IMG/VR virus record: IMGVR_UViG_3300033066_001296
Location: 1-64,000 of that record
Length of the DNA stretch: 64,000 nt
Direction: 5' to 3' (one strand)
DNA from: a virus
Lineage: Duplodnaviria > Caudoviricetes
Under the pieces are notes generated by a model. The model had not been told where the DNA came from. It worked only from the letters and a program-made list of their open reading frames with translations, and did no database searches. Position numbers and translations under genes: made by a program. Of this stretch, positions 1 to 60,035 are shown piece after piece; position 1 is the first letter of the stretch, and each line of letters begins with the position of its first letter.

Positions 1-102
1 AATATCTCCTCTGTGTATCCAAGGTTTTTGCTGTTTCACTTGGAGAATCAGCGCCGAAGCAGAACAGCGGCAGGCGCTAGAAGAGTAAACTGCTACCCTG
101 TC

Positions 103-176
103 TGGGGTAGAATTAGCACTTTTCGCGAACCAGAGGAGCAGGCACAGGTTAGAGGTTCGATTCCTCTTACTCTACA
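103..176 (+). ncRNA. tRNA-like element (T-arm and acceptor-like stem only)
   Basis: T-arm AGAGG-TTCGATT-CCTCT (151-167); TACTCTA (168-174) can pair with TGGGGTA (103-109); no pairable anticodon stem found. Confidence 0.3.
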
Positions 177-288
177 GACGGTAGGGCAGGGACAATACCT
201 GTTGCCGCAGTCATCGTGTTGCAACACGATGCGAAGGTGGTGAGGCATCTTTGAGTGGCCCTGCGAAACGGGGCCACACCTCACAATT

Positions 289-360
289 CAGGGTGTAGCC
301 TAGTGGTTCAGGTTCGGCCTTTGGAGCGCTGAGACGGGTGTTCGATTCACCCCACCCTGA
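289..360 (+). tRNA. tRNA-Pro(UGG)
   Basis: Acceptor CAGGGTG/CACCCTG, D-stem GCCT/AGGT, loop TTTGGAG with anticodon TGG at 322-324, T-arm GGGTG-TTCGATT-CACCC, discriminator A; C1-G72/A73 are Pro identity elements; CCA not encoded. Confidence 0.85.
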
Positions 361-407
361 CTAAGTTTGTACTTGATGACTATGTTACAATCCTTCAGTC
401 TGTGCCT

Positions 408-887
408 ATGGAAGAAACTAGGCAATGCTTGACGTGTGGCAGTACCAAACCGCTCAACGAAGAGAACTTCGTATACAGAAATAAGAAGCTTGGGCAATTC
501 ACATCGTACTGCCGCCCATGCAAGACCAAATACAACAACGATCACTATACTCTACACAAGGCTGAGTACGTGCCACGTCGCGCAGTCCGAAACAAGAACT
601 ACAGACTGCACATAAGTCAGTTTTTGTTGTCTTATCTACAAGAACACCCATGTGTAGATTGTGGCGAGAAAGATCCTGTTGTTTTGGAGTTTGACCATCA
701 GAGAGACAAAGTTAGATCTCTGTGTATGATGACAGCAGCGGGTTTCTCAATTGAGAAAATTAAAACTGAGATAGATAAGTGCGAGGTTCGCTGTGCAAAT
801 TGTCACCGCAGACGAACCTCACAACAACGAGGTTGGTTCCGCTCTATATCAGGGCAGGCGATAAGGACAAACCATGGAACTCTTTGA
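408..887 (+). CDS. HNH-type endonuclease with zinc fingers
   Basis: CxxC pairs, CVDCGEKDPVVLEFDH...EIDKCEVRCANCHRRRT; extended -10 TGtTACAAT at 383-391. Confidence 0.75.
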   Translation: MEETRQCLTCGSTKPLNEENFVYRNKKLGQFTSYCRPCKTKYNNDHYTLHKAEYVPRRAVRNKNYRLHISQFLLSYLQEHPCVDCGEKDPVVLEFDHQRDKVRSLCMMTAAGFSIEKIKTEIDKCEVRCANCHRRRTSQQRGWFRSISGQAIRTNHGTL

Positions 888-1089
888 TAAGAATGAGCGA
901 TTCACAAATCAAGCTCTCGATATTGATCGGGAGTTCTGCCAAGCGCTCAAGCCAATCTTTCTTAAATACACGCGACAAGGCGCATCAATTCGGCAGCTTG
1001 CGTATATCGCATCGAGTTCTCTAGCTGAAACACACTTGGACTTGCTGCTGGATGATCCAAAGATTGTCCGAGGCAGTTCCGTCGAATAA
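874..1089 (+). CDS. hypothetical protein
   Basis: 71-aa ORF with AGGA upstream, overlaps previous gene. Confidence 0.5.
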   Translation: MELFDKNERFTNQALDIDREFCQALKPIFLKYTRQGASIRQLAYIASSSLAETHLDLLLDDPKIVRGSSVE

Positions 1090-1344
1090 GACAACCAAGC
1101 TTGTTCCTGTGAGTACAAGTGTACAAGCGAGCCTTTGAAGTTCGCGAAGATGGTGCGATTCCATCCACAGGATCCATGCGAGTAGGTCGAGTTGTCCTCG
1201 GGAGCATCATGCGCGCCCCGATCAGAAGGTGTAACTCCTTCGCTCGCAACCAATGCGGGGTTGATGTAGCAGCAACATGGCACACTTCCACTGTGCTCTC
1301 AGGAGTGCAAATCTCCTACTCCGCTCTACGTAACAAGAGGTTCC

Positions 1345-1623
1345 ATGACATACGATCCAGTCAAGTTCGCACAGGGTATTGATGAAGAACTCTCTCAGAT
1401 TCGCGAGACCCTGATCCTAAAGAACAAGGATTATGGTGATAGTGCATTGAGTCCTATCGGAGTCTTTGCCGAGCCTGATCCCGTTCAACAGCTCTGCGTT
1501 CAGATCGACCACAAATTGAAGAGAATTCAGAACACAAAAGCTGGATCTGCAATCCAAGAAGACACCCTCAAAGACCTCATCGGCTACTTGATCCTTCTCC
1601 GAATCGCACTGAAGAATCCATGA
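1345..1623 (+). CDS. DUF1599 / nucleotide-modification-associated (MazG-like fold) protein
   Basis: KNKDYGDS...IDHKLKRI...EDTLKDLIGY signature. Confidence 0.75.
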   Translation: MTYDPVKFAQGIDEELSQIRETLILKNKDYGDSALSPIGVFAEPDPVQQLCVQIDHKLKRIQNTKAGSAIQEDTLKDLIGYLILLRIALKNP

Positions 1624-1691
1624 AGGTTCTCGTTCTGGAACCTGTCGTTTATCGTTGATCATCGGCAGGATTTCTGCCATTGATTCAGATC

Positions 1692-2111
1692 ATGAGCAGT
1701 TCAATTCCGTTGTGCGCTTGTGGATGCGGAGAGCCCGTAAGATTTCATGGCAGGAAGCCGATGACCTACAAGAAAGGTCATCATCGCAGGAAGCATGGTT
1801 TCAAATCGGAAGGCACCTTTTGTCCGAAGTTGGCTAGGGTCAACGAGCGGATGACCAGAGAGTTCGGTATCACTAGAGAGCAGTCCGATAAGATGCTGGA
1901 AGCACAGAACGGTGTCTGTGCGATCTGTTCGTGCATAACAAATTGCAAGGACAAGAGCGGAGAACTGAAATGGTGTATCGACCATTGTCATAAAACTGGC
2001 AAAGTTCGTGGTATTCTTTGTCACCTTTGCAATGCTGCACTTGGGCTGTTTCGCGACGATATACAAACACTCGAGAATGCTCGTGCATACCTCATCAGGT
2101 CTGAACAGTGA
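1692..2111 (+). CDS. endonuclease VII-family nuclease
   Basis: CACGCG N-terminus; QNGVCAIC...IDHCHKTGKVRGILCHLCNAALG. Confidence 0.85.
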   Translation: MSSSIPLCACGCGEPVRFHGRKPMTYKKGHHRRKHGFKSEGTFCPKLARVNERMTREFGITREQSDKMLEAQNGVCAICSCITNCKDKSGELKWCIDHCHKTGKVRGILCHLCNAALGLFRDDIQTLENARAYLIRSEQ

Positions 2112-2542
2112 GCAAGAGAGCTCGTCCCAACAGTTTGGGCATTCTGTGTGCGTGTGAATGTGGGCAACTAACAAACGAAAATCACGGCAAGATTTCAAAG
2201 TTTGTCAAGGGTCACAGTGCTCGTAAGTTCAAGAATGGAGAGCTCCGTAGTGGCAAGGTAGCAGATGCTTTCTATTGCCTGAAAAGAAAATACGGACTTA
2301 CGTACGAGGCTTACTATGAGCTATTGCAAAAACAAAACGGGGTCTGTGCAATCTGCGGAACAGATAATCCTGGCAATGCTCGTGGTGGCCGATGCCCTCG
2401 CATGGCAGTAGACCATTGTCACAAAACCCGGAAAGTTCGCGGGTTGCTTTGTCAGTCCTGCAATAAAGGACTTGGTAATTTGAAAGACTCTCCCGACGTA
2501 GTGGAAAAAGCAATCAGCTATTTGAAGGAGTATGTAGGCTAA
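2108..2542 (+). CDS. endonuclease VII-family nuclease (tandem paralog)
   Basis: QNGVCAICG...VDHCHKTRKVRGLLCQSCNKGLG; GTGA overlap with previous gene. Confidence 0.85.
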   Translation: MSKRARPNSLGILCACECGQLTNENHGKISKFVKGHSARKFKNGELRSGKVADAFYCLKRKYGLTYEAYYELLQKQNGVCAICGTDNPGNARGGRCPRMAVDHCHKTRKVRGLLCQSCNKGLGNLKDSPDVVEKAISYLKEYVG

Positions 2543-3621
2543 TGAAGGTATGTGTGCTCGGAGATTTTCACATCTGGAACCACTCCCAACTTGGGGGTCC
2601 GATGGAGGGGGGTCTCAATCGCCGTTGCAGGGGGCTGATTCGAGACATCTCCGACACGGTGCAGGGTGCCATCACAGAGTATGGAATCGAAGCTGTAGTT
2701 CAGCTCGGAGACTTCTTCGACAAGTCCAATCCGCCTCCCGCTGTGATGCTCGCTGCGATGGAGCTTCTTCGCCGGTTTGATGTGCAATGGCACATCCTGG
2801 CAGGGAACCATGACATCCGAGCTTTCGGAGTGCCTTCCGCCATCGCACCGCTTCGGCACCTCCCCAACGTCAAGGTCTACGAAGAGCCTACATTGGTAGA
2901 GCTCGGCGGTGCCCCCTGGGCAATGATCCCCTTCACCGCAAGAACTGCCGATGAGTCGGTGAAGAAAGCCTTGGAGCTTCTCAGTCCTGCCGTTGATGAA
3001 ACACGGTTTGCCTGCCTCCACTATGGAGCCGTTCGGGAGTACAGCAGCAATCGACCGGATGTGACCCCGCTCCGAGACTACTTCTGGACAGGGCACACCT
3101 CGGATCGTTATCCGACAAACTGGTTCTTCGGTCACGAGCATGGGAGTCGGGCGGTTGCAAACACATCCGAGCACACCAAAGCACGATCGCTCGGTTCTTT
3201 CTGTCAGCACAACTTCGGCGATCCCAATATCATCTACATTGGGGCAATCGTAGATACAAACCTTCTCGACGTTGTGAAGGTCGTAGAGCTCATGGGTCCA
3301 AGGTTTGTGGATCTCCGTGAGGTGGACTTCACGTTGCTTGGAACGCACCGTAATGCCTCTGCGGTTTATGCAATCTTCAGTCCCGAAGATGCTTCTCTTG
3401 CTGAAAGGCTTCGAGAGGTTGGAATCATCACAGACTTCCGCATTGCCCCGATACAACGGGAAGAGAGCGCCGATGGCTTTGCTGCGGAGTCTGCCCCATT
3501 GACCAGCTCGGAACCTGTGGACATCGATCAGTGTGTGTTGGAAGAGCTCCAAACCAAGCGAAGCGACGAAGAGCTTCTGAAAGCCTGGGAATACTATGAG
3601 CAACTCAAGCAGCGGATCTAG
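2542..3621 (+). CDS. SbcD/Mre11-like metallophosphoesterase nuclease (T4 gp47-like)
   Basis: GDFH, LGDFFD, AGNHD, GHEH motifs; TAATG coupling. Confidence 0.9.
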   Translation: MKVCVLGDFHIWNHSQLGGPMEGGLNRRCRGLIRDISDTVQGAITEYGIEAVVQLGDFFDKSNPPPAVMLAAMELLRRFDVQWHILAGNHDIRAFGVPSAIAPLRHLPNVKVYEEPTLVELGGAPWAMIPFTARTADESVKKALELLSPAVDETRFACLHYGAVREYSSNRPDVTPLRDYFWTGHTSDRYPTNWFFGHEHGSRAVANTSEHTKARSLGSFCQHNFGDPNIIYIGAIVDTNLLDVVKVVELMGPRFVDLREVDFTLLGTHRNASAVYAIFSPEDASLAERLREVGIITDFRIAPIQREESADGFAAESAPLTSSEPVDIDQCVLEELQTKRSDEELLKAWEYYEQLKQRI

Positions 3622-4758: not shown

Positions 4759-6344
4759 AGCTACTCAGTCTTGAACTTACGAAATTCCTCTGCCATACGG
4801 GGCCTGTTCTATTTGAGTTTGGTCCTGGGGTGACATTGCTCTCTGGGCCGAATGGGGTCGGCAAGAGCGCACTTCTGGAGGGCATCCTCTGGGCGATCTG
4901 GGGCTTCGTTCCGAGTCGCCCCGCTCGAATTGAGGGCTCTCGAGCAGTGCTCAAGTGCAGCGATCAGTTCACCATCGATCGCTCCTACAATGGCAGAACG
5001 GAGAGTGTGGACATTGGTAAGGGTGCGGGAGGGAAGCGCAGGGCTGAAGAGGAGATCGCAGCTCACTTCGGAACCTACTCGGCCTGGGAACGATCCCTCT
5101 ATGTGACCGGAAAGAATGTCTCGCACTTCTCCTCAGGGAACGCCACAACACGCTGGGATCACCTCGAGAGGGTGACAGGGGCTCTTCGGTTCCGAGAGCT
5201 TCAGAAAGCCTCTGCGGAGGATCTGACGGCACTTCAGAAGTCTTCGGAGGCGGTGGTTCAAGAGGTTGATGCGCTCCGCGATCGGATCCTGCGCGCAAAG
5301 TCCAACTTTGAGGATCGCCGCAGATTTCGAGAGCTCATCTACGATGACTTCAACGAGCCTCAACTCCGAGAGGATCTGAAACGTCTCACCGAAGAGTTTG
5401 ATCATGTGGAGGCTCAGAAGAGCACTCTTCAAGATACACTCTCCGAGTTTGAGAAAGAGATTCAGCCTCTCCTACGAGAACACCGCAGCTTGGAAGAGGC
5501 TCTACAAAGAGTGGTCTACAAACTCTGTGAGACTTGCGGATCAAGTGTTCCCGTAGAGAAGGACAAATCCTCTCTACGAGATCGTCTCTCCGTAATCAAA
5601 GATGAGATCTTGAAAGCCAAGGAGGTAAAGAACGAGTTCCTCGAAGAGATCTCAAGATTGAGTAGCGAAGGTCAGAATCTTCTGGAAGAGATCTCCGACA
5701 TCAAGCTCACACTTGCGGAGCTTGCACGTCGTGAGGATGTACTTCTTCAGGAAGAAGAGTCCTGTCTGAAGCAACTCCAGACAATCTTCGATGCGGAGTC
5801 CAGACTTCTCAAACTGACAACCGATTCGGAGATTGCTTACGATCGGTTGAAGGTTGGGAAGGACGTGAGCAAGGCTCTCTCGCCTTCGGGCGCTCCTCGA
5901 AGATACCTTCGCCAATACCTCGATCGAATTGGTCAGTACGCAAACTACTACCTTTCCGCACTCGGATCTCCGATTCAAGTGCAGCTTGTGGTGGGGGATG
6001 ACAACAAGACCCTGGACATCAAGGTTGCGGGTATTCCTGCGAAGCGCTACGAGCACGCTTCCGGGGGCCAGCAGCGGAGGATTGACCTCTGCCTGCTCCT
6101 CGCCATGGCAGAGGCCGCAGCGGAGGTTGGAACGATCCCCAAGGATGCTCCACTCATCTTTGACGAGGCGCTGGATACACTTGACGCCGAGGGTGTGGAA
6201 TCGCTTATCTTCCTTGCGTGCGACATCGCCACACGGAGACAAGTGCTCCTCGTAAGCCACGCCGATCCGGTGCTTCCGCTCGGAACTCAGGTACACCACA
6301 TCAAGCTGGGATCGAATTCGTGGACTCCCTCTACATCCGTTTGA
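4755..6344 (+). CDS. SbcC/Rad50-like ATPase (T4 gp46-like)
   Basis: Walker A GPNGVGKS, central coiled coil with CETC zinc hook, signature SGGQ, Walker B LIFDEALD; ATGA overlap. Confidence 0.92.
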   Translation: MKLLSLELTKFLCHTGPVLFEFGPGVTLLSGPNGVGKSALLEGILWAIWGFVPSRPARIEGSRAVLKCSDQFTIDRSYNGRTESVDIGKGAGGKRRAEEEIAAHFGTYSAWERSLYVTGKNVSHFSSGNATTRWDHLERVTGALRFRELQKASAEDLTALQKSSEAVVQEVDALRDRILRAKSNFEDRRRFRELIYDDFNEPQLREDLKRLTEEFDHVEAQKSTLQDTLSEFEKEIQPLLREHRSLEEALQRVVYKLCETCGSSVPVEKDKSSLRDRLSVIKDEILKAKEVKNEFLEEISRLSSEGQNLLEEISDIKLTLAELARREDVLLQEEESCLKQLQTIFDAESRLLKLTTDSEIAYDRLKVGKDVSKALSPSGAPRRYLRQYLDRIGQYANYYLSALGSPIQVQLVVGDDNKTLDIKVAGIPAKRYEHASGGQQRRIDLCLLLAMAEAAAEVGTIPKDAPLIFDEALDTLDAEGVESLIFLACDIATRRQVLLVSHADPVLPLGTQVHHIKLGSNSWTPSTSV

Positions 6345-6352
6345 AGTTTGGG

Positions 6353-6616
6353 ATGCCCATGAACGAGTTTAATCGCCTCGTTCTCCAGTATCCGAACTTG
6401 GTAAGGCTGCAAGAGCATTTGCAAGTAAACTCCCACTTCATTGAGTTCGGATCTGTGCTCGGTGCTGTAAACCAATCGCGTTCGGAACCTAAGTATGTGC
6501 TCAAACAACCTCTTCGGTTCCTCGATTGGGCAAAAACATCGGAGCTTTACGACGAAGCGCAGTTGGAGAATCTCGAGTGGTTGATCTGCCAGGAGCTCAT
6601 GAAGGAGATGGTGTGA
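6353..6616 (+). CDS. hypothetical protein
   Basis: 87-aa ORF following sbcC-like gene. Confidence 0.5.
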   Translation: MPMNEFNRLVLQYPNLVRLQEHLQVNSHFIEFGSVLGAVNQSRSEPKYVLKQPLRFLDWAKTSELYDEAQLENLEWLICQELMKEMV

Positions 6617-6631
6617 ACTGTTCAAATGTTC

Positions 6632-6660
6632 TTGACGCTTCTTTGAGCGTTCTCTAAGAT
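6632..6660 (+). promoter_or_regulatory. sigma70-type promoter
   Basis: TTGACG-N17-TAAGAT. Confidence 0.7.
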
Positions 6661-6666
6661 CTGATT

Positions 6667-7110
6667 TGCGCACGTCCGTGGTTTGCAGATTGCGGGCAGT
6701 TTTTCCTTGGCCTGTCTCCCAGGGGCGCACGAGACAGCGTAGACCCTCTCGCTGAATAAGCTTGAGGGTTTTTACGTTTATGGTAGGGTCCTTGACGGAC
6801 CCCGCTGGTAGGGCCTGTGTCGGTTTAGACCCGACCCTCTCGTGGAAAAACCACGTTACGGAAGCAAATAGCCAGTAGTCCATACCCTTCGGTTGAGTCG
6901 GACTTGATCTGTCCCAATGAGGGCTCCAGAGCAAGGGACAGCAGTGGCACCGTGTACGACTTCGGTGGATGATCAAACGGGCGGTATGTCGGCTGGATCG
7001 CTGATAAGACGAGTCTCTTGCAACCTGCACCCCTGAAAAGGCAACCCTTGAGACTCCCGAATCAGCTACAACTCTTGAAACCGGCACCAGACAGGTGCAG
7101 TGGTTGAGGA
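6667..7110 (+). ncRNA. candidate large structured non-coding RNA or leader
   Basis: ORF-free ~450 nt directly after the promoter with at least 8 stems of 5-7 bp and a possible pseudoknot. Confidence 0.5.
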
Positions 7111-7119
7111 AGTCGGTCT

Positions 7120-7587
7120 ATGTCCGAGGTTCTAAGTATAGGGTTCACGGGAACTCAGCAGGGCCTTACGAACCCTCAGAGAAGTTCCCTCTTCACGCTC
7201 CTTGCACAACTCTTCGATCTCGGTGCCAGGTTCCACCACGGAAAGTGCATCGGTGCAGATAGTCAGGCTCACTACCTTGCAAACATGCTCGGTTATGCCA
7301 TTGTGCTGCACCCTCCGCTCCTCGGTAAGAAAGAGGCGAAGTGTCCCATCGAGATCGAAGAGGGTGACGAGATACGCCCTCGCAGAGACTATCTCGATCG
7401 CAACCGTGACATCGTGAACGAGACCACAATCCTGGTTGCGTGTCCGAAGGAAGAAGAGGGCGAAGCTCTTCGTTCGGGCACATGGTTCACAGTTCGATAC
7501 GCCAGAGATCTCAAACGTAAGATCTACATCATCCGACCAAACGGGGAGGTTGAGGATGGATCGACCGATCCTGAAGTCCGAACTTGA
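7120..7587 (+). CDS. SLOG-family (YspA/DprA-like Rossmann) protein
   Basis: IGFTGTQ, HHGKCIGAD, RNRDIV, SGTWFTVRYA motifs. Confidence 0.8.
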   Translation: MSEVLSIGFTGTQQGLTNPQRSSLFTLLAQLFDLGARFHHGKCIGADSQAHYLANMLGYAIVLHPPLLGKKEAKCPIEIEEGDEIRPRRDYLDRNRDIVNETTILVACPKEEEGEALRSGTWFTVRYARDLKRKIYIIRPNGEVEDGSTDPEVRT

Positions 7588-7708
7588 GAAGTGTTTTCGA
7601 GAGGTTCTTGAACAATGGAGCAAGAAACCTCAAATACCAACCGCGGAACGAGTTCTATGGGAGATCTTGGACAGGTTGGAGAAGCTAGATAAGAAGGAAG
7701 AACAATGA
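7556..7708 (+). CDS. small hypothetical protein
   Basis: GAGG upstream; stop overlaps next start. Confidence 0.5.
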   Translation: MDRPILKSELEKCFREVLEQWSKKPQIPTAERVLWEILDRLEKLDKKEEQ

Positions 7709-8019
7709 GTAATCGTCTGATTCGCTATCGTGCAGTTTCGATGAAGGTCGCTGGTAAGGTTCGTTGGCTCGTGGATCAAGTTGTGATTCGCGAGGTGGTC
7801 CGTGGCAAGAAGGTCGTGGCCTGGGACCTCTACTTCCAGAAGACGCGCAAGGCGTTCGAGGGGCAAGACCCGGCTCGTTGGGCACCGCTCCTCTCGCGCA
7901 CCCCGAAGAAGGCGGCTCTGCGTGAGATTCGTCTCCTCCAGAGCGAATACAAGGAGGCCGTAGACGACGCCATGGAGTGCTTCGAGGCCATCACGGATCT
8001 GAGCAAGGTGGTCGATTGA
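7705..8019 (+). CDS. hypothetical protein
   Basis: ATGA-coupled 104-aa ORF. Confidence 0.6.
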   Translation: MSNRLIRYRAVSMKVAGKVRWLVDQVVIREVVRGKKVVAWDLYFQKTRKAFEGQDPARWAPLLSRTPKKAALREIRLLQSEYKEAVDDAMECFEAITDLSKVVD

Positions 8020-52034: not shown

Positions 52035-52882
52035 GCATCTTGAAGCCCGGACAGCAAAGACCCTCGATCAACCTTACGAATCGGAAGTCCTTTGTAGAGA
52101 ACTCTGTGCCAGCCCAAGTACCTGTAACGGAGAACTTCGAGTCTCCCAATCCTGGTCTTGCAATCCAGACTATCGCAAAGCTTCCCAACCAGCGAGGGAA
52201 GGGCGGAAGACCTACCAAGGCCCAGAGTCGCGATGCAGGCTACATGGAAGGTGCTCAGAAGGCCATCGAGGAGATTCGAGAAGCAAACCCTCCGCTTCTC
52301 GCTGCCGCACCTCACCGTTCTGGAAAGATGGAGATTCAGAGATCCTGGGAAAAGGCATACGACGCCAAGGAGAAGTCTCTCGAGCGGCAGGAAGCCGAAG
52401 CCATCCTTGCAGCGCGGAGCGAAAGGCTTGCCGCACTTGAAGAGGAAACCGCCATTCGCAGAGCCAACCGAAAGGTTGGCGTCGCCGCAGGGCTTGCTGC
52501 ATTCACGATGGTGCGAACGCTTGGAGATGTGGCAGAGCGACTCGACAAAAAGGTGCGAGAATCGAAGGACATGAGCTTCTCGGAGCTTCGGGGTGCAATC
52601 AACACACTTTCGGGCTCTGTATCCAAGATGCAGTCCGCAATGGAGACTGTGGCACGCCTCGAACGCACGATTACGCGGCGACCGCTTGATGAAGAGGGTG
52701 TAAATTCTGTTAGCGAAGACGATCTTTCAAACCTCTCTGTTGAAGACGCAGAGAAGATCCTCGAGAACATTCTCAAAACGACCTATCACACGGCAAAGAG
52801 CGCAGGAATCAAAATTTACGATGGTACTGCGGAGGTGGTAGAGACTTCAGAAGAGGTGAGCAATGGCGAAGTTGAATCCTGA
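52031..52882 (+). CDS. probable terminase small subunit
   Basis: Directly upstream of and overlapping TerL; helical and coiled-coil. Confidence 0.5.
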   Translation: MSILKPGQQRPSINLTNRKSFVENSVPAQVPVTENFESPNPGLAIQTIAKLPNQRGKGGRPTKAQSRDAGYMEGAQKAIEEIREANPPLLAAAPHRSGKMEIQRSWEKAYDAKEKSLERQEAEAILAARSERLAALEEETAIRRANRKVGVAAGLAAFTMVRTLGDVAERLDKKVRESKDMSFSELRGAINTLSGSVSKMQSAMETVARLERTITRRPLDEEGVNSVSEDDLSNLSVEDAEKILENILKTTYHTAKSAGIKIYDGTAEVVETSEEVSNGEVES

Positions 52883-55800
52883 TCTCATCAAGTTCATCGC
52901 AAAAGAAGATCCAGAGCACGCTGTACAACTTGAACGAGACTACAAGCGTGCCATGATCATTCTTGCGCGTAATGATCCCGCCATGTTTTGTCAGTATGTC
53001 CTTCGTAATGGCAAAACAGGAGGTGCGATCTACCTCACACCCGAGCATGTGGCTTTGCACAAGCTGATTCAGCCGTGCTCTAGAACTGCGGTTTGGACTT
53101 ATCCTGAGTTTGGCAAAGGTCTAGACCTAAATACTGACATTCCGACACCATCAGGATGGGTAAAGATGTCAGATATTCAAGTTGGGTCATCTGTATTCGG
53201 ATCTGACGGCATAGAGGCTCGTGTCATTTGGGTAAGCCCTATCCAAAACATCCGAGTTTTTGATGTAGAGTTTGACGATGGTGTAGTTATTCGTTGTGAC
53301 GAGTCTCATTTGTGGTCCGCATACTCATGCAAAGATCGTCACAAGAATCCACAACCGCTCAAACTCGTGAGCACGTTGGAAATGTCCAACTCCGTCAAGC
53401 ATGGAGATAGGAACCAGTGGGGAATTCCAATCGCACCTCCGGTCCAATATCCATCCAAGCAATTGCCGGTGCATCCATATCTTTTGGGTGCTTGGCTAGG
53501 AGATGGTGACAGTAAAGGACTAACTTTGACTTGTCACCAAGAAGACATTGCGATTGTGGATCGGTGTTGCCAGCTATCCGGTGAGTTGGTCAAAAAGGTT
53601 CCAGACAAGCGTAAGCCTCATGTACTGCGCTGTAAGATTGGTGGTTCTGAACTTCAGAAAAAGTTCAGGCAGCTTGGGGTTCTTGGAAAAGCAGGTTGCA
53701 AATTCATTCCTGCCGAATACCTCACAGCTTCCGAGGACCAAAGGAGGGAGTTGTTGGCGGGGCTGCTAGACACTGATGGTACTGTCTACACGAGATCTAA
53801 CGATGTGTCGTTTGTAGAAGTATCTTTTTGTGTTGAACGTCTGGCACTCGACACGCTTGAGCTTGTCAGGTCCCTGGGCTTCAAGGCCAGGCTCCGTTCT
53901 GAACCCTCTAAACTCTACGGCAGGGTTGTAGGTGCACGACATAGGATTTTCTTCACAGCCAGGGAACCAGTCTTCAAACTGGAACGCAAGCTCAACAAGC
54001 AGAAACTCCAAGCTGCTCACGGGAGCAAAGCAAACGCGCGATACGTTGTAAGCGTTACGGAAGTTCCCTCTGTTCCGACCAAATGCATCAAGGTTGATTC
54101 GCCTGATCACACCTTTCTTGCGGGGCGCAGCTACACAGTCACGCACAACTGTGAAGAGTCTGGAAATTCTGTACTCCTTCGGGATGGCACTTGGAGAAAG
54201 ATCGAAGATCTGGCAGATGGGAACTTTCACGAACTTCTAACGTGGGATCTACACCAACCCGCACTCAAACCAGTTACAGGACGTGTAACTGCGAACGGGA
54301 AACGTCCCGTGGTTCGTTTCCACTTGGCAAACGGGCACAAGATCGGCGTTACACAGGAGCATCCTCTTTGCGCTGCGGACGATGTTCAGTGGCGGCAAGC
54401 TCAGAATTTGAAGGTGGGGGACCGAATCGTCTGCCTCCGTCATCTTGAGCTCGAGTCCACAACACCCGAAAGTGACGTACCCTCCGAAGAAGCAGAGATT
54501 CTTGGATATCTCCTAGCGGGCGAGGTTCGAGGTCGGAGAGTCTTTGTTCGCAAGCTCTGGAAAAGCGAGCATTGGAGCTCTCGCCGTGCTCGGATGTTCA
54601 AGAAAGCCATGTGGGAGCTTGTGGACCACGATCGGGATTGGTTGGAAGTGGTGCTCTCCAAGAGCGCTGATTCCACCGATATGCACCCTTACGTGTTCAT
54701 AAATCAGCTCGCCACAATTCAAGACAAGTATCCCGTGGATCTGAGCCCAGAAATCTGGAGGCTCCACAAGACGGGACTTCAGAGGCTCCTTACTGCATTC
54801 TTTGTAACGGCATTTTGTGATCCTCGGAGGAAGATCTGGACAAGGGGTCGCACAGTAGGCGTCTCTGACAAGCGCTACCCCAAGGGCTTCGTTCACAAGT
54901 GTTACGAAACTGGTGACATGATCCGCAGGCTTGCACTGCGATTGGGGGTGTCCATAATCGTAAAGCAGGACTATTACTTTACGAAAGAGTGGCTGATCAG
55001 CGTACCTAATCCCCAAGTAAAGATCTTTTACCCATCGAAGGTAGAATACCCAGACCAGATTCCGTTGATGGAGGCTGTTGAGATTGTAAAGATCGAACAT
55101 GCAGAGGCGGAAACCTGGGCAGTTGAGATTCTGGATAGCGAGCACAGCTACATTTCTGGGGGTGTGCTCTCTCACAACACCACGCAGATGATCGGGCATG
55201 TTCTCTGGCGTCTTGGGAAAGACCCCAACATCTCGATTGGTATCTTTCAGAACTCCAAAGGCTCCGCGATCAACACCCTCAAGACGATCAAGGAGTACAT
55301 TGAGGATTCTGTAGAGCTCCACGACGTGTTCCCGAACTTGGTTCCGGGTACAACATGGAGCGAGCATCAGATCACGGTTCCACGAAGCACCTTCCGACGT
55401 GACCCTTCCGTCAAGGCGGTGTCTCTCGGATCGAAGTTCATGGGGGACCGCTTTGATGGTCTGATCCTTGACGACGTGGACAACCCTGATACCGTGCTCA
55501 CAGAGGAATCGAGAAAGAAGACAGAGGATTGGGTTCGTCGAAGTGCTCTCTCCCGTCTTACAGAGGAAGCCTGGGCAATCGCCATCGGCAACATCTGGCA
55601 CGAAGGCGATCTCATGCACCAGCTTGTTAAATCGGGCTGGAATGCAGTAAAGCACCCTGTCCTTCGCCCTGATGGAACACCTCTCGATCCAGACCGCTTT
55701 ACGTTGGAGCGCATCTACCACATTCGCGATGTGGATCAGAAGCCCATCGAGTTTGAGCGCCTTTACATGCTCAAAGAGCGGAGGGATGGCGATCAGAGAT

Positions 55801-57659
55801 TCCGTATGGAATGGATTGCCAACGCCTTGAAGAAGGGCAATCAGAATATCCTCGTGAAGTGCGAGGAGCACATTCCAAAGATCCCATCGGGATGCCGTGC
55901 GATTACGGGCGTGGACCTTGGTGTGAAAAAGAAGGCATCTTCGGACCCTACAGTGATCACTACGATTCTCGAAGCCCCAGCCGGGAAGGATCGCTACGAA
56001 TATCAGATTCTCAACATCAAGAAGGGTCGTTGGGATGCTGATGAGATCATGAAGAACATTGCGGAGCAGCAACGCTGGTTCGGATCTCAAGTATTCGTGG
56101 AGTCGAACGGCTGTTTTGTTCCGGGCACTCGGGTGCTTACACCCTCCGGGTATGTGCCTATCGAGAAGGTTGAACCTGGAACTCTGGTGTGGACTCATAT
56201 GGGACGTTGGAGAAAGGTCATCAATCGATACGACGGCACTGCGCGGCATGTGACTCCCGTAAAGGCAACCGGAAGTCTTTCAGTAACATGCACACCTAAC
56301 CACGCATTTTATGTGCGGCAGGCTGGTAGAACATCTGGGCGTGGCGGGGGCCATCACAGACCGCTGGACCCAAAGGGCTGGTGCTCTATTGGGTTCCCCG
56401 ACGTGCCCCTGTATCTGAATTTGGCTCTGCCAGTCTGGCCCGCCAAATCACCGGAGCTTCACTTGGAGCAGACCAAAAAGCTTCCGGCTCGTGCAATTCC
56501 TGTTAACGAAAAGTTGGCGCTTGTTCTCGGTCTTTTCATGGCAGAAGGGCACACAACGACGGGTCAAGTGTTTTGGACGTTGAACAAAAACGAGGGTTAT
56601 CTTGCAGACCTGATCGACGAGGTGTTGAGTCCTCTTGGCTTCAAATCCAGCCGCCGCATTTACAACAACACACTTCGTGTCGTAATTTCTCAGGTGCAAC
56701 TTGCAAAGACCCTCAAATGTGGAAAGGGTCCGAACAAATGCCTGCCATTGGATTGGATGGGGTGGCCTCTGGATCTGCGTATTGCTCTTGTCAGAGGTTG
56801 GCTACTCGGAGATGGCTGTGCAGGTAAGAACGGCAACAGAAAGAAGTTGCCGTCTATTAGTCTTTCTGGTGTGACGATCTCTAGGGATTGGGCTTTGTTT
56901 GTGAGGTCAACCCTTCATCAAGCTGGAATCACTGTTGCGCTTAGGGAGTCCACACGTAAACAATCTGTGATCGAAGGGCGCATAGTTAATAGAAATCCGT
57001 CGTTCCTCTTGAATCTTACACAAGATGGTTCTGAGCAACTTCGCAAGCACATGACGCATTCTGTCGAAGCTGAGCGTTGGGGAGCAAAGTGGTGGGATCA
57101 GTCTCTTCCAAATGCAAGGCAGCATGGATGTCCGACTGTAATCCAAGCTGATGGTGTTTGGGCTCGAATGAAAGATCATGATCTAGACCCAAAGAAGACG
57201 TACATTCCATACGAAAACGGGCCTGTTCATAATCTAGTTGTTGAGGAAGATGAGTCCTTCACTGTTGAGGATTTTGTTGTTCACAATGCCCAGGACTTTC
57301 TTGTTCAGCTCATCAACTTGTCGGGTTCCAACTTCCGCGTTACACCCTTCAACACAGGCCGTAACAAGTACGATCCAATGTACGGTATCGAGTCTCTTGC
57401 GGGGGAAATGGCGGTTGGTTACAACGAGGGCTCTGAGAATGAGTTCGGCCTCTGGTATTTCCCTTCGATCGATGGGACGCTCGAGAGCGCAGACGATGAG
57501 ATCCAGGAGCTCGTTCAAGAGATGCTCGCGTACACGCCGGGGGATCACACGGGCGACCTTCTCATGTCGCTCTGGATTGCCCGTGAAGGCGCAAGAAACT
57601 CGCGGATTCAAGTGAAAGAATCCAAGTTTCAGTGGGGTCGCCTTCGTCTTCGCCACTGA
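52863..57659 (+). CDS. terL: terminase large subunit with three inteins (about 519 aa after splicing)
   Basis: Walker A PEFGK|TT, Walker B LILDDVD, nuclease GVDLG, ESNG|AQ and HTGDLLMS motifs. Confidence 0.92.
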   Translation: MAKLNPDLIKFIAKEDPEHAVQLERDYKRAMIILARNDPAMFCQYVLRNGKTGGAIYLTPEHVALHKLIQPCSRTAVWTYPEFGKGLDLNTDIPTPSGWVKMSDIQVGSSVFGSDGIEARVIWVSPIQNIRVFDVEFDDGVVIRCDESHLWSAYSCKDRHKNPQPLKLVSTLEMSNSVKHGDRNQWGIPIAPPVQYPSKQLPVHPYLLGAWLGDGDSKGLTLTCHQEDIAIVDRCCQLSGELVKKVPDKRKPHVLRCKIGGSELQKKFRQLGVLGKAGCKFIPAEYLTASEDQRRELLAGLLDTDGTVYTRSNDVSFVEVSFCVERLALDTLELVRSLGFKARLRSEPSKLYGRVVGARHRIFFTAREPVFKLERKLNKQKLQAAHGSKANARYVVSVTEVPSVPTKCIKVDSPDHTFLAGRSYTVTHNCEESGNSVLLRDGTWRKIEDLADGNFHELLTWDLHQPALKPVTGRVTANGKRPVVRFHLANGHKIGVTQEHPLCAADDVQWRQAQNLKVGDRIVCLRHLELESTTPESDVPSEEAEILGYLLAGEVRGRRVFVRKLWKSEHWSSRRARMFKKAMWELVDHDRDWLEVVLSKSADSTDMHPYVFINQLATIQDKYPVDLSPEIWRLHKTGLQRLLTAFFVTAFCDPRRKIWTRGRTVGVSDKRYPKGFVHKCYETGDMIRRLALRLGVSIIVKQDYYFTKEWLISVPNPQVKIFYPSKVEYPDQIPLMEAVEIVKIEHAEAETWAVEILDSEHSYISGGVLSHNTTQMIGHVLWRLGKDPNISIGIFQNSKGSAINTLKTIKEYIEDSVELHDVFPNLVPGTTWSEHQITVPRSTFRRDPSVKAVSLGSKFMGDRFDGLILDDVDNPDTVLTEESRKKTEDWVRRSALSRLTEEAWAIAIGNIWHEGDLMHQLVKSGWNAVKHPVLRPDGTPLDPDRFTLERIYHIRDVDQKPIEFERLYMLKERRDGDQRFRMEWIANALKKGNQNILVKCEEHIPKIPSGCRAITGVDLGVKKKASSDPTVITTILEAPAGKDRYEYQILNIKKGRWDADEIMKNIAEQQRWFGSQVFVESNGCFVPGTRVLTPSGYVPIEKVEPGTLVWTHMGRWRKVINRYDGTARHVTPVKATGSLSVTCTPNHAFYVRQAGRTSGRGGGHHRPLDPKGWCSIGFPDVPLYLNLALPVWPAKSPELHLEQTKKLPARAIPVNEKLALVLGLFMAEGHTTTGQVFWTLNKNEGYLADLIDEVLSPLGFKSSRRIYNNTLRVVISQVQLAKTLKCGKGPNKCLPLDWMGWPLDLRIALVRGWLLGDGCAGKNGNRKKLPSISLSGVTISRDWALFVRSTLHQAGITVALRESTRKQSVIEGRIVNRNPSFLLNLTQDGSEQLRKHMTHSVEAERWGAKWWDQSLPNARQHGCPTVIQADGVWARMKDHDLDPKKTYIPYENGPVHNLVVEEDESFTVEDFVVHNAQDFLVQLINLSGSNFRVTPFNTGRNKYDPMYGIESLAGEMAVGYNEGSENEFGLWYFPSIDGTLESADDEIQELVQEMLAYTPGDHTGDLLMSLWIAREGARNSRIQVKESKFQWGRLRLRH
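53118..54149 (+). mobile_element. TerL intein 1, class 3, with LAGLIDADG endonuclease
   Basis: Starts GLDLNTDIPTPSGW; block B SHLW, block F TKCIKV, block G VTHN (Trp-Cys-Thr triplet); LGAWLGDG and LAGLLDTDG. Confidence 0.88.
54150..55178 (+). mobile_element. TerL intein 2, class 1, degenerate endonuclease
   Basis: Starts CEESGNSVLLRDG; block B VTQEHPL; ends YISGGVLSHN before Thr; LAGLIDADG motifs eroded. Confidence 0.85.
56112..57287 (+). mobile_element. TerL intein 3 with LAGLIDADG endonuclease and Ala at +1
   Basis: Starts CFVPGTRVLT; block B CTPNHAF; LGLFMAEG and VRGWLLGDG; ends FVVHN followed by AQDF. Confidence 0.85.
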
Positions 57660-57722: not shown

Positions 57723-60035
57723 ATGTCTCGTTCCAAGGCTTCGGCCTCAAGGTCTTCTATTTTTCAGATTCAGGATGCAGATCGTTTCCTTCTCGACGAC
57801 GCTTTCATCGAGAAATACAAGGGACAAGAGCCTAAATGGGGTCCAGTTGGTAAGATTGCATACGTAAGAACCTATGCAAGAGAGCTTCGCAACGAGGAGC
57901 TTGTCCAATTCTTCATGCGCGACATGAAGATGAGCCGAAAAGATGCCAGAGCAGCAGCTCGCAAGGCGGGTGTGCGCCGTGAAGAGTTCTGGCAGACGGC
58001 TCGCCGTGTCGTCGAGTTTGCTTGGACTGTGTTTCAGCGACAGGCTCGCATGGCGCATCACTCCTGGGATGCTGCGGAGGCTCAAGTAAAGGCGCAGGAG
58101 ATGTTTGAGCGTCTTTGGGCCTTCAAATGGCTCCCACCCGGCAGAGGTATGCAGTTCGCAGGAACCCCTGTGGTGGAACTCAAAGGGGGTGCAGTGCTGA
58201 ACAATTGCGGATTCGTGAGCACAAGACACCTATCCGCAGACCTTGCATCTCCTTTCTGCCGTTTCATGGACTTCTTGATGCTTGGTGTGGGCATGGGTGC
58301 CGATGTTCGAGGTGCTGGGTCTGTCACAATCAAAGCCCCCATCCAAGGCAATGACCCTCCTTATCGCGTCGAAGACAGTCGCGAGGGCTGGGTAAACGCA
58401 CTTCGGGTGAAGCTCGACACCTACTTTCACGGACTCATGGAAGTAGAGTTTGATTTCTCAAACATTCGAGCAGAGGGCAAGCCTCTGAAGACTCTGGGGG
58501 GCACTTCGAGCGGTTCCGCACCTCTCGAAAGGCTCTTGAATCGTGTGGATGAGATCCTCAAGCCACTAATCGACCGTACGATTACTGTGTCTGCGATTGC
58601 AGACATCTTCAACGAGATTGGCGTGTGCGTTGTCTCTGGTAACATTCGCAGATCTGCCGAGATCATGATCGGAGAGAACGGAGATGACGCATTTGCAGCA
58701 TTGAAAGACCCATCTGATCTCAATAATGCGTTCGCAGAGCGCAGTCTTATTGAGGATCAGATCCCCGAGGTTTCCAGACTGCATCAAAAGATCGCAAGAC
58801 TGCGTGAGAAGCAAGCAGACCTGTCTGCTGCCAACGCCAAGTTCCTCTATCTCCAAGACAAAATCGATCGGGCCAACGCAAGGCTCCACAAGATTGCCAG
58901 CTCGAACGAAGCCTGGTTGGCTGTAACGGACAAGATCAACAAGCACCCCCTCAATACACACCGCTGGGCATCGAATAACACCCAACTCTTCTCGACCAAG
59001 GACAGCTTTGAAGAGGTCGCAGCAAGAATCATATCCAATGGAGAGCCCGGTATTGCCTTCATGGACAGCATTCGCGCATACGGGAGAATGGGCGACTTTG
59101 TTCACTATCCTCGAAGTGCAGATCTGAAAGACCCTCGTGTTGAGGGCTTCAACCCTTGCTCTGAGCAGTCTCTCGAAGATGGTGAGCTGTGTTGCCTCGG
59201 GGAGCTCAACCCCAACGCGCACGAAACCCTCGAAGACTTCCTCATGACCATCAAGTTTGCGTATATGTATTGCAAGGCGGTCACGCTGGTGCCTACCCAT
59301 GACCCTGAAACCAATCAGATCATGACGAGAAACCGCCGTATCGGGCTCTCCATGATGGGCATCTGGAAGATGTACGAACGACTTGGAATGCAGGAGTGCA
59401 TTCGTTGGTGGGATCGCGGCTACGAAGAGGTGCGCAAGTGGGACAGGACCTACTCTTCGTGGCTTGGTGTGAACGAATCCATCAAAGTTACCTCCGTGAA
59501 ACCCGGAGGCACAATCCCTCTTCTCGTTGGGGAAGAGGGCGGCATGAAGATTCCTACTGCCAAGTACTACTTCCGCACCATTCGCATGGATCACAAGTCG
59601 CCGCTCGTAAAGGCTTGCAAGGATGCGGGTTATCGTGTGGAGAAGGACCGTGTTTCACCAAGAACGGCGGTTGTGTACTTCCCAATCCACGATGAGTCCA
59701 CAAAGCGCACCTCGGAGCAGGTTACGCTTTGGGAGCAGATGGGGTTGCTTGCAGCTCTGCAAGCCCATTGGTCCGACAACATGGTGTCCAACACCATCAC
59801 GTTCCGTCCTCACGAGGCAGATCAGATCGCGTCTGCGGTGGGAATGTTCGCAAACCGAATCAAATCGGTGAGCTTTCTACCCCTGATGACGCACGGATAC
59901 GCGCAAGCCCCCTACATCCCAATCGAAGAGTGGGAGTACGAGCTTGCAGTTGGAAAGTTGGGGAATCTAGATCTGTCAGGCGGGGGTCACGAAGTAGACG
60001 AGAAGTACTGCACCGGAGATGTCTGTATGCGCTGA
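57723..60035 (+). CDS. nrdJ: class II (adenosylcobalamin-dependent) ribonucleotide reductase, monomeric RTPR type
   Basis: PPGRG, NNCGF, SGNIRRSA, FNPCSEQSL...CCLGE, SVKPGGT, C-terminal EKYCTGDVC; SD GGAGG. Confidence 0.92.
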   Translation: MSRSKASASRSSIFQIQDADRFLLDDAFIEKYKGQEPKWGPVGKIAYVRTYARELRNEELVQFFMRDMKMSRKDARAAARKAGVRREEFWQTARRVVEFAWTVFQRQARMAHHSWDAAEAQVKAQEMFERLWAFKWLPPGRGMQFAGTPVVELKGGAVLNNCGFVSTRHLSADLASPFCRFMDFLMLGVGMGADVRGAGSVTIKAPIQGNDPPYRVEDSREGWVNALRVKLDTYFHGLMEVEFDFSNIRAEGKPLKTLGGTSSGSAPLERLLNRVDEILKPLIDRTITVSAIADIFNEIGVCVVSGNIRRSAEIMIGENGDDAFAALKDPSDLNNAFAERSLIEDQIPEVSRLHQKIARLREKQADLSAANAKFLYLQDKIDRANARLHKIASSNEAWLAVTDKINKHPLNTHRWASNNTQLFSTKDSFEEVAARIISNGEPGIAFMDSIRAYGRMGDFVHYPRSADLKDPRVEGFNPCSEQSLEDGELCCLGELNPNAHETLEDFLMTIKFAYMYCKAVTLVPTHDPETNQIMTRNRRIGLSMMGIWKMYERLGMQECIRWWDRGYEEVRKWDRTYSSWLGVNESIKVTSVKPGGTIPLLVGEEGGMKIPTAKYYFRTIRMDHKSPLVKACKDAGYRVEKDRVSPRTAVVYFPIHDESTKRTSEQVTLWEQMGLLAALQAHWSDNMVSNTITFRPHEADQIASAVGMFANRIKSVSFLPLMTHGYAQAPYIPIEEWEYELAVGKLGNLDLSGGGHEVDEKYCTGDVCMR

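Follow-up and report, generated by a model that had tools for sequence, protein, structure and literature searches.

Several inteins can lie near a single ATPase P-loop, as described for the separated 'double inteins' MCM-a and MCM-d of haloarchaea (PMC10643990), for inteins i1 and i2 of Mycobacterium smegmatis DnaB (PMC6195587) and for the sites TerL1-a and TerL1-b of the phage terminase large subunit (TerL), which are one residue apart and occupied in different phages (PMC5050341). In these systems one intein invades alleles that hold the other, but there the inteins are kept apart by extein residues, and the junction residues of each are its own. The TerL gene analysed here lies on a 64,000-nucleotide (nt) stretch of viral DNA, positions 1-64,000 of IMG/VR record IMGVR_UViG_3300033066_001296, which we refer to as the window and whose numbering is used throughout. 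Unlike the described genes, it carries two predicted inteins in its Walker A motif with a spacer of zero, and the residues at their contact, Asn429-Cys430, would be shared by both active sites. In the literature searched, we found no publication on two inteins that share one insertion point with no extein residue between them, the nearest cases being the separated double inteins and the TerL sites one residue apart in different phages; the first-pass annotation of this DNA likewise named closely spaced inteins as known, but not the zero-spacer, mixed-class layout. The components are all known: inteins of classes 1 and 3, homing by LAGLIDADG enzymes, and the Lys/Thr position in the P-loop, which is the classic intein site TerL1-a (PMC5050341). 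It is their zero-spacer fusion that the searched literature did not contain. At the RNA level, twintrons provide an analogy, as there too one selfish splicing element serves as the insertion context of another and removal is sequential. In contrast to twintrons, the chemistry here is that of proteins and the elements are adjacent rather than nested, so that either order of removal is formally possible.

The evidence presented below makes it probable that two independent, complete inteins occupy one point of the P-loop, intein 2 as the resident and intein 1 as the mobile element, and that they are removed by two successive splicings.

Layout of the interrupted terminase gene

The features of the intein pair and its surroundings, in window coordinates, are as follows.

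52863-57659, + strand: TerL gene, an open frame coding for a 1598-amino-acid (aa) precursor with three inteins; the mature extein, recognised by a profile match, has about 519 aa
52863-53117, + strand: N-extein, aa 1-85, ending in the Walker A residues Gly84-Lys85 (53112-53117); WTYPEFGK is conserved in relatives
53118-54149, + strand: intein 1, aa 86-429, predicted class 3 with a LAGLIDADG homing endonuclease, from profiles, PDB sequences, invariant residues and fold
Sites of intein 1, + strand: Gly1; block B His149 and Trp151, 53307-53315; F:4 Cys408, 54084-54086; Thr-His-Asn, 54141-54149
53481-53513 and 53751-53783, + strand: LAGLIDADG motifs of intein 1
54150-55178, + strand: intein 2, aa 430-772, predicted class 1 with a LAGLIDADG-fold domain of degenerate motifs, from profiles, invariant residues and fold
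Sites of intein 2, + strand: Cys1, 54150-54152; block B TQEH, 54351-54362; block F, 55113-55157; His-Asn, 55173-55178
54498-54524 and 54786-54821, + strand: remnants of the LAGLIDADG motifs of intein 2
55179-55181, + strand: Thr773, the Walker A Thr and predicted +1 nucleophile of intein 2 (of intein 1 too, if intein 2 leaves first)
55179-56111, + strand: C-extein part 1, aa 773-1083, the remainder of the ATPase domain and the start of the nuclease domain, from the phrog_38 match

With a slash marking each junction, the N-extein meets intein 1 at WTYPEFGK85/G86LDLNT (nt 53118), intein 1 meets intein 2 at YTVTHN429/C430EESGN (nt 54150) and intein 2 meets the C-extein at GVLSHN772/T773TQ (nt 55179). 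No extein residue lies between the inteins; the Walker A residues Lys85 and Thr773 flank the pair, and deletion of aa 86-772 restores the Walker A sequence GKTT. The three junctions, the absence of a spacer and the restored motif are thus found in the translated open reading frame exactly as the first-pass annotation had given them.

The identity of the extein follows from aa 773-1083, which match the phrog_38 family 'terminase large subunit' with an E-value of 8.5e-42, and NF033889 gives a partial match. The latter profile matched this locus only, so that it revealed no second T7-type TerL in the 79.8-kb record; searches of the record with Pfam Terminase_6N/6C returned nothing and missed even this terL, and are therefore uninformative on a second terminase. 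The source record is a linear virus genome of 79,845 bp with 53.7% G+C and a CheckV completeness of about 90%. A megablast search with the TerL gene found no match among GenBank phages, and the portal protein shows only about 25% identity to portals of Ralstonia and Komagataeibacter phages; judged by these comparisons, the phage appears to be without a close cultured relative among GenBank phages.

Class assignment and structure of the two inteins

Intein 1 (344 aa) resembles the class 3 P-loop inteins, represented by TerL1-a of mycobacteriophage Eureka, MP-Be DnaB and M. smegmatis DnaBi1 (6BS8), in having no N-terminal nucleophile, in its Trp, Cys (F:4) and Thr residues and in its LAGLIDADG domain (PMC5050341, PMC2807308, PMC6195587). 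With TerL1-a of Eureka (gp8) it shares 37% identity and the same Lys/Thr point of the Walker A motif, the Eureka junctions reading NGK/ALDVET...TPTHN/TELL. Both Hint halves match the class 3 DnaB mini-inteins 6rix, 6riy and 6bs8 (E-values 1.5e-18 to 1.7e-17), and the alignment to these structures places Gly86 on Ala1, HLW on the block B HQW, Cys408 on the F:4 Cys and THN on THN. His149 and Trp151 in block B, Cys408 at F:4 and Thr427-His-Asn429 in block G are invariant in 28 relatives, which together with the alignment to 6rix bears out the Trp-Cys-Thr triplet named by the first-pass annotation. Position 1 of the window copy is Gly86, i.e. it carries no Cys, Ser or Thr nucleophile. This Gly had been called unusual, but it is not: the position holds A, G, D, E, L, P, R or S in 72 relatives, as expected for class 3. 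The combination of an absent N-terminal nucleophile, Trp (B:12), Cys (F:4), Thr (G:5), the block B His and the terminal His-Asn identifies intein 1, on sequence features, as a predicted class 3 intein.

The middle part of intein 1 matches Pfam LAGLIDADG_3 (E-value 2.6e-6) and Hom_end (E-value 1.7e-6) as well as PI-SceI, and its endonuclease motifs LGDG and DTDG, already noted as intact, are invariant in 26 relatives. From motifs, profiles and the fold match to PI-SceI, the insert is a predicted LAGLIDADG homing endonuclease. Two features set intein 1 apart from the class 3 inteins named above: its C-terminal neighbour is Cys1 of another intein, which gives it a +1 Cys of a kind seldom seen in class 3, and intein DNA makes up the 3' half of its presumed homing site.

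Intein 2 (343 aa) scores 25.8 bits against TIGR01445 intein_Nterm (cut-off 24.5) and, over its residues 9-343, 32.1 bits against Pfam Intein_splicing, just below the cut-off of 35.8. Its characteristic residues are Cys430, TQEH at 497-500 and His771-Asn772, followed by Thr773. Across 34 relatives, no variation is seen at Cys1, at the block B His-Pro or at the terminal His-Asn. With Cys1, a block B TxxH, a terminal His-Asn, a +1 Thr and a modelled Hint fold, it has the features of a class 1 intein, the class to which we assign it. These features and the two-domain Hint plus LAGLIDADG fold (Z 25-27.5) are shared with the canonical class 1 inteins PI-SceI, TliVMA and PhoVMA (7QSU, 7QST) and PI-TkoII (2CW7). 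Unlike these, intein 2 has in the stack the terminal Asn of another intein as its -1 residue, is apparently fixed in a phage TerL clade, is found at four nearby sites and differs in its endonuclease domain (see below). A tblastn search with intein 2 alone against phages yielded only a weak match in the TerL of Acinetobacter phage ME3.

An AlphaFold2 (AF2) model of the intein pair with 20-aa flanks was built from an alignment of 26 stacked homologues (mean predicted local distance difference test score 83) and compared with known structures using VIA-align. Model residues 21-362 align with PI-SceI (Z 27.6, 332 residues aligned) and with the class 3 intein 6bs8 (Z 18.9, 122 aligned, 34% identity), while model residues 363-707 align with the endonuclease-bearing TliVMA intein 7qsu (Z 27.5, 317 aligned), with PI-TkoII 2cw7 (Z 25.1, 308 aligned) and with Ssp DnaB mini-inteins including 1mi8 (Z 21.9, 137-138 aligned). 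Profile, PDB-sequence and fold matches all give two inteins rather than one, and sequence and model agree on two separate full-length inteins in the TerL P-loop.

The endonuclease domain of intein 2 had been described as eroded, which is correct for its presumed active site but not for its fold. No Pfam endonuclease profile matched intein 2, and the catalytic acids are not conserved, the position in motif 1 being Arg in most relatives and that in motif 2 variable. The middle domain nevertheless retains the double alpha-beta-beta-alpha-beta-beta-alpha LAGLIDADG fold in the AF2 model and is under purifying selection, with a ratio of nonsynonymous to synonymous divergence (dN/dS) of 0.07 in one close pair. 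Conserved acids at both helix ends, as expected of an active LAGLIDADG enzyme, are lacking across the relatives, which makes endonuclease activity of the window allele doubtful. Only in the window's subclade (P0001, P0005-9) do the two helices end in Glu554 and Asp653, which may reflect an activity that was retained or regained.

The zero-spacer junction in independent genomes

Among 5.8 billion clustered proteins, a homologue search recovered many TerL proteins that span both inteins, from which representatives at 90% identity were taken. The zero-spacer junction THN/C occurs in 30 cluster representatives, the window's included, across several TerL sublineages (P0001, P0005-13, P0015-23, P0027-31, P0052, P0054, P0124, P0128, P0131 and P0132), with identities as low as 23-34% and overall identities to the window from 71% down to about 31-34%. 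The P0019 allele recurs on 8 contigs, which come from three or more samples of ENA and JGI, and P0005 and P0008 stem from different projects. A scan of IMG/VR with a junction-spanning alignment added five further full matches, one of which, L008 from another IMG/VR sample, carries the window's junction at 98% identity.

These data bear on the trivial explanation that the locus is an artefact or a dead gene, i.e. a chimeric assembly of two alleles, a concern raised by the first-pass annotation, or a TerL pseudogene that is never matured. The recurrence of the same junction in independent samples and assemblers counters the former. As to the latter, the frame is open over 1598 codons and the gene is the only TerL match in a record that is about 90% complete. 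Furthermore, between P0019 and P0042, at a synonymous divergence (dS) of 0.1-0.2, dN/dS is 0.02-0.05 in the exteins and 0.04 in intein 2, and the values across exteins and intein 2 span 0.02-0.07. Nothing was found that speaks for an artefact or dead gene, and we consider there to be next to no probability of either. Strong purifying selection on the exteins of what is the sole TerL in the record rather implies that both inserts must be removed post-translationally.

In P0131, the stack contains a mini intein 1 of 165 aa (aa 86-250) that has lost its endonuclease; the stacked state therefore survives for times over which intein 1 can decay in situ.

Stacks also occur in other contexts. In a distant TerL lineage (P0052, P0054, L013 and L014), a class 3 intein is stacked on a different class 1 intein (THN/CVT...THN/TQQ); the open frame of L014 stops shortly past the junction, and this copy may be broken. 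Outside the terminases, a 353-kb contig (IMGVR_UViG_3300025288_000010; L016, positions 1-3489) contains a zero-spacer stack in a jumbo-phage gene resembling RNA polymerase Rpb1/beta', in which a LAGLIDADG intein ending in FTVAHN is followed directly by the mini-intein CFAGHTQIL...FTVVHN/C. The C-terminal blocks of these two look paralogous.

A natural series of intein states

The comparison with TerL homologues carrying one or both inteins, which the first-pass annotation had suggested, recovered alleles of either kind. Cluster E mycobacteriophages, e.g. Eureka with its gp8, and an outgroup TerL clade (P0032-38 plus about 30 others) carry intein 1 alone, at GK/T or GK/S, while intein 2 alone, at GK/C, is found in P0042, P0127, P0136, P0140, P0171 and P0227-229. 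Members of the intein 2 family also occur 11 residues upstream of GK (P0014, P0130, P0220, P0221), 17 residues downstream (P0125) and 39 residues downstream (P0024-26, P0072, P0076, P0129, P0222-226), and several alleles with a displaced intein 2 keep intein 1 at GK/T or GK/S (e.g. P0014 and P0024-26). Closely related TerL genes hence offer, as natural substrates and controls, a series that comprises either intein alone, the stack, separation by 11 or 39 residues and the stack with a mini intein 1. Such a series shows hyper-parasitism among selfish protein elements, and it offers orthogonal inteins that tolerate scarless tandem placement, a property useful in protein engineering.

In all, four sites in a stretch of about 50 residues surrounding the P-loop hold members of the intein 2 family in closely related TerLs, always in the form X/C...HN/T and in spite of the degenerate endonuclease motifs of this family.

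Intein 2 as the probable resident and intein 1 as the probable mobile element

The core clade of the extein tree has 35 members, every one with an intein 2. Six of them lack intein 1, each standing beside a stacked sister; intein 1 is missing from sister alleles in at least five subclades. As the first search could not see proteins shorter than 878 aa, a control search for shorter proteins was run, and it added 12 core-clade TerLs, all with intein 2 only. Among the resulting set of about 47 representatives, no intein-free and no intein-1-only core-clade allele was found, although with a word-based search their absence is unproven. Intein 2 is apparently fixed in the core clade, perhaps because it cannot be lost or because it has taken on a role.

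The two inteins differ in how closely they follow their host gene. The intein 2 tree mirrors the extein groups, with the copies at the site 39 residues downstream forming one clade and the copies 11 residues upstream forming a supported clade with the stacked P0010. In Mantel comparisons of pairwise identity with the extein, rho is 0.77 for intein 2 and 0.38 for intein 1. The contrast is evident in individual pairs:

P0005 and P0008: extein 100% identical, intein 2 99%, intein 1 65%
P0007 and P0009: extein 97%, intein 2 94%, intein 1 67%
P0011 and P0016: extein 91%, intein 2 98%, intein 1 57%
P0019 and P0042: extein 100%, intein 2 99%, intein 1 absent in P0042

Approximately unbiased (AU) tests on intein 1 rejected sisterhood of P0005 with P0008 and of P0007 with P0009 (p about 5e-4; log-likelihood 201 and 166 units worse, respectively). 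For the intein 1 clade of P0011, P0012, P0013 and P0016, congruence was not rejected (p 0.31); exchange is not seen in every subclade.

The nucleotide sequences confine these differences sharply to intein 1. A clean 1023-nt indel, bounded by GGN-AAR and TGC-GAG, separates P0042 from P0019 with both flanks 94-96% identical, and the loci of P0005 and P0008 show 2-6 differences per 100 nt in the flanks and 20-50 per 100 nt exactly within intein 1. A comparison of L002 with L003 revealed no co-conversion tract beside the indel; between L006 and L007, where about 5 differences per 100 nt form the background, intein 1 is followed downstream by 131 identical nt, which is no more than suggestive of co-conversion. 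In the intein 1 tree, the copies that stand beside an extein Thr or Ser (P0014, P0024-26, P0129) nest among copies that stand beside intein 2, which indicates that one endonuclease lineage uses both kinds of 3' half-site. The constant part of the site is its 5' half, the codons of WT[YH]Pxx GK.

Read in this way, the sequences indicate that intein 2 is an old, vertically inherited resident and that intein 1 is currently mobile, having repeatedly arrived, left or been replaced at the boundary between Lys and Cys1. For recent events, the trees, the Mantel comparison, the AU tests and the indel support the scenario of the first-pass annotation, in which a mobile class 3 intein invaded an older class 1 intein at its N-terminal junction. 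The data do not polarise the founding event of the first stack, given unrooted trees and an outgroup in which intein 1 occurs by itself.

The reverse history would have intein 1 resident at GK/T, intein 2 inserted between its Asn and the Thr at +1, and intein 1 later lost in some lines. An outgroup TerL clade with intein 1 alone at GK/T is what such a history would start from, the intein 2 family can evidently move, with at least three site changes within about 50 residues of the P-loop, and the unrooted trees do not distinguish gain from loss. Yet none of the about 47 core-clade alleles has intein 1 without an intein 2 somewhere, and it is intein 2, not intein 1, that is congruent with the extein. 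Moreover, the two intein 1 lineages in the identical extein and intein 2 backgrounds of P0005 and P0008 need arrival or conversion of intein 1 in front of intein 2. On balance we regard the reverse history as unlikely and retain intein 2 as the resident.

Proposed route to the mature terminase

Mature TerL would be made by two successive splicing reactions. In the class 3 mechanism, attack of the F:4 Cys on the N-terminal junction is followed by transfer of the acyl group to the +1 nucleophile, by cyclisation of Asn and by an acyl shift (PMC2807308). Applied to the stack with intein 1 reacting first, Cys408 would take over the N-extein as a thioester and hand it to the thiol of Cys430, after which cyclisation of Asn429 and an S-to-N shift would yield GK-Cys430. 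This product would equal the precursor of the intein-2-only alleles, from which intein 2 would then splice canonically onto Thr773. If intein 2 instead reacted first, with Asn429 at its -1 position, the product THN/T would equal the precursor of the intein-1-only alleles. Under either order the intein that splices second meets its ancestral junction, so that the stack would have needed no co-adaptation and could arise repeatedly. At the DNA level, half of the target site of intein 1 would be another intein, with homing at the boundary between the codons of Lys85 and Cys1.

We lean slightly towards intein 1 splicing first, which we judge somewhat likelier than the opposite order. Intein 1 and Cys430 are translated about 340 residues ahead of the completion of intein 2, and the MP-Be DnaB class 3 intein still splices at wild-type level when it carries the T+1C mutation (PMC2807308). 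Splicing of intein 2 first, or the use of both routes, keeps a substantial though lesser probability: natural class 3 inteins nearly always have Thr or Ser at +1 (PMC2807308), and all 41 of the 41 stand-alone relatives of intein 1 have T or S there.

Several points weigh against the overall reading of a resident and a mobile intein removed in succession. We infer from sequence that splicing takes place, in which order, and that intein 1 employs Cys430; the AF2 model has low confidence where the final strand of intein 1 leads up to the junction (model residues 358-363); relatives were sampled by word-based searches with length windows, seeded with intein-containing queries; and single presence/absence pairs do not separate gain from loss.

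In Hint folds, both termini of each intein meet in its active site. Given this arrangement, the six junction residues of the stack must lie close together, and the pair might be excised as one hybrid unit, in which Cys408 passes the N-extein straight to Thr773 and Asn772 resolves the branch, leaving Asn429 and Cys430 idle. Such a reaction is compatible with all sequence data. It sits poorly with the invariance of Asn429 and Cys430 in all stacked alleles, old stacks such as P0131 included, although that invariance is weak evidence, since each intein must also function alone. We consider excision as one unit very improbable in comparison with two successive splicings.

A further reading assigns the pair a role: intein 2 may have been domesticated as a conditional gate on terminase maturation, with intein 1 having evolved to home into the DNA of intein 2 and to recruit the Cys1 of that intein as nucleophile. 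The fixation of intein 2, its constrained but apparently catalytically dead endonuclease fold and the lack of intein-free alleles among those found prompted this reading, which we nevertheless hold to be rather improbable. If it were true, DNA packaging would hinge on an obligatorily ordered, two-key cascade of protein splicing at one peptide bond.

For intein biochemists and students of selfish-element evolution, the stack poses the questions of whether one Cys can be the +1 nucleophile of one intein and Cys1 of the next, of whether the order of splicing is kinetic, i.e. co-translational, or free, and of how a homing endonuclease recognises a site whose 3' half is another intein.

Third intein and downstream region

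The remainder of the precursor contains a further intein, which interrupts the nuclease domain:

56112-57287, + strand: intein 3, aa 1084-1475, with LAGLIDADG and Hint_2 domains, at ESNG/AQDF
57288-57656, + strand: C-extein part 2, aa 1476-1598

Intein 3 is followed by Ala at +1 and not by Cys, Ser or Thr. The +1 Ala is found in six homologues (P0017, P0064, P0072, P0076, P0219 and the window), and relatives that lack the intein read VESNGAQDF at this site. A related intein at another site, in P0067, has Cys at +1.

Directly downstream of terL, the window contains a gene resembling class II ribonucleotide reductase (57723-60035). Between L006 and L007, the corresponding region (6300-7969) shows 20-38 differences per 100 nt, compared with 2-6 in the TerL flanks, and this jump in divergence points to a mosaic boundary directly after terL.

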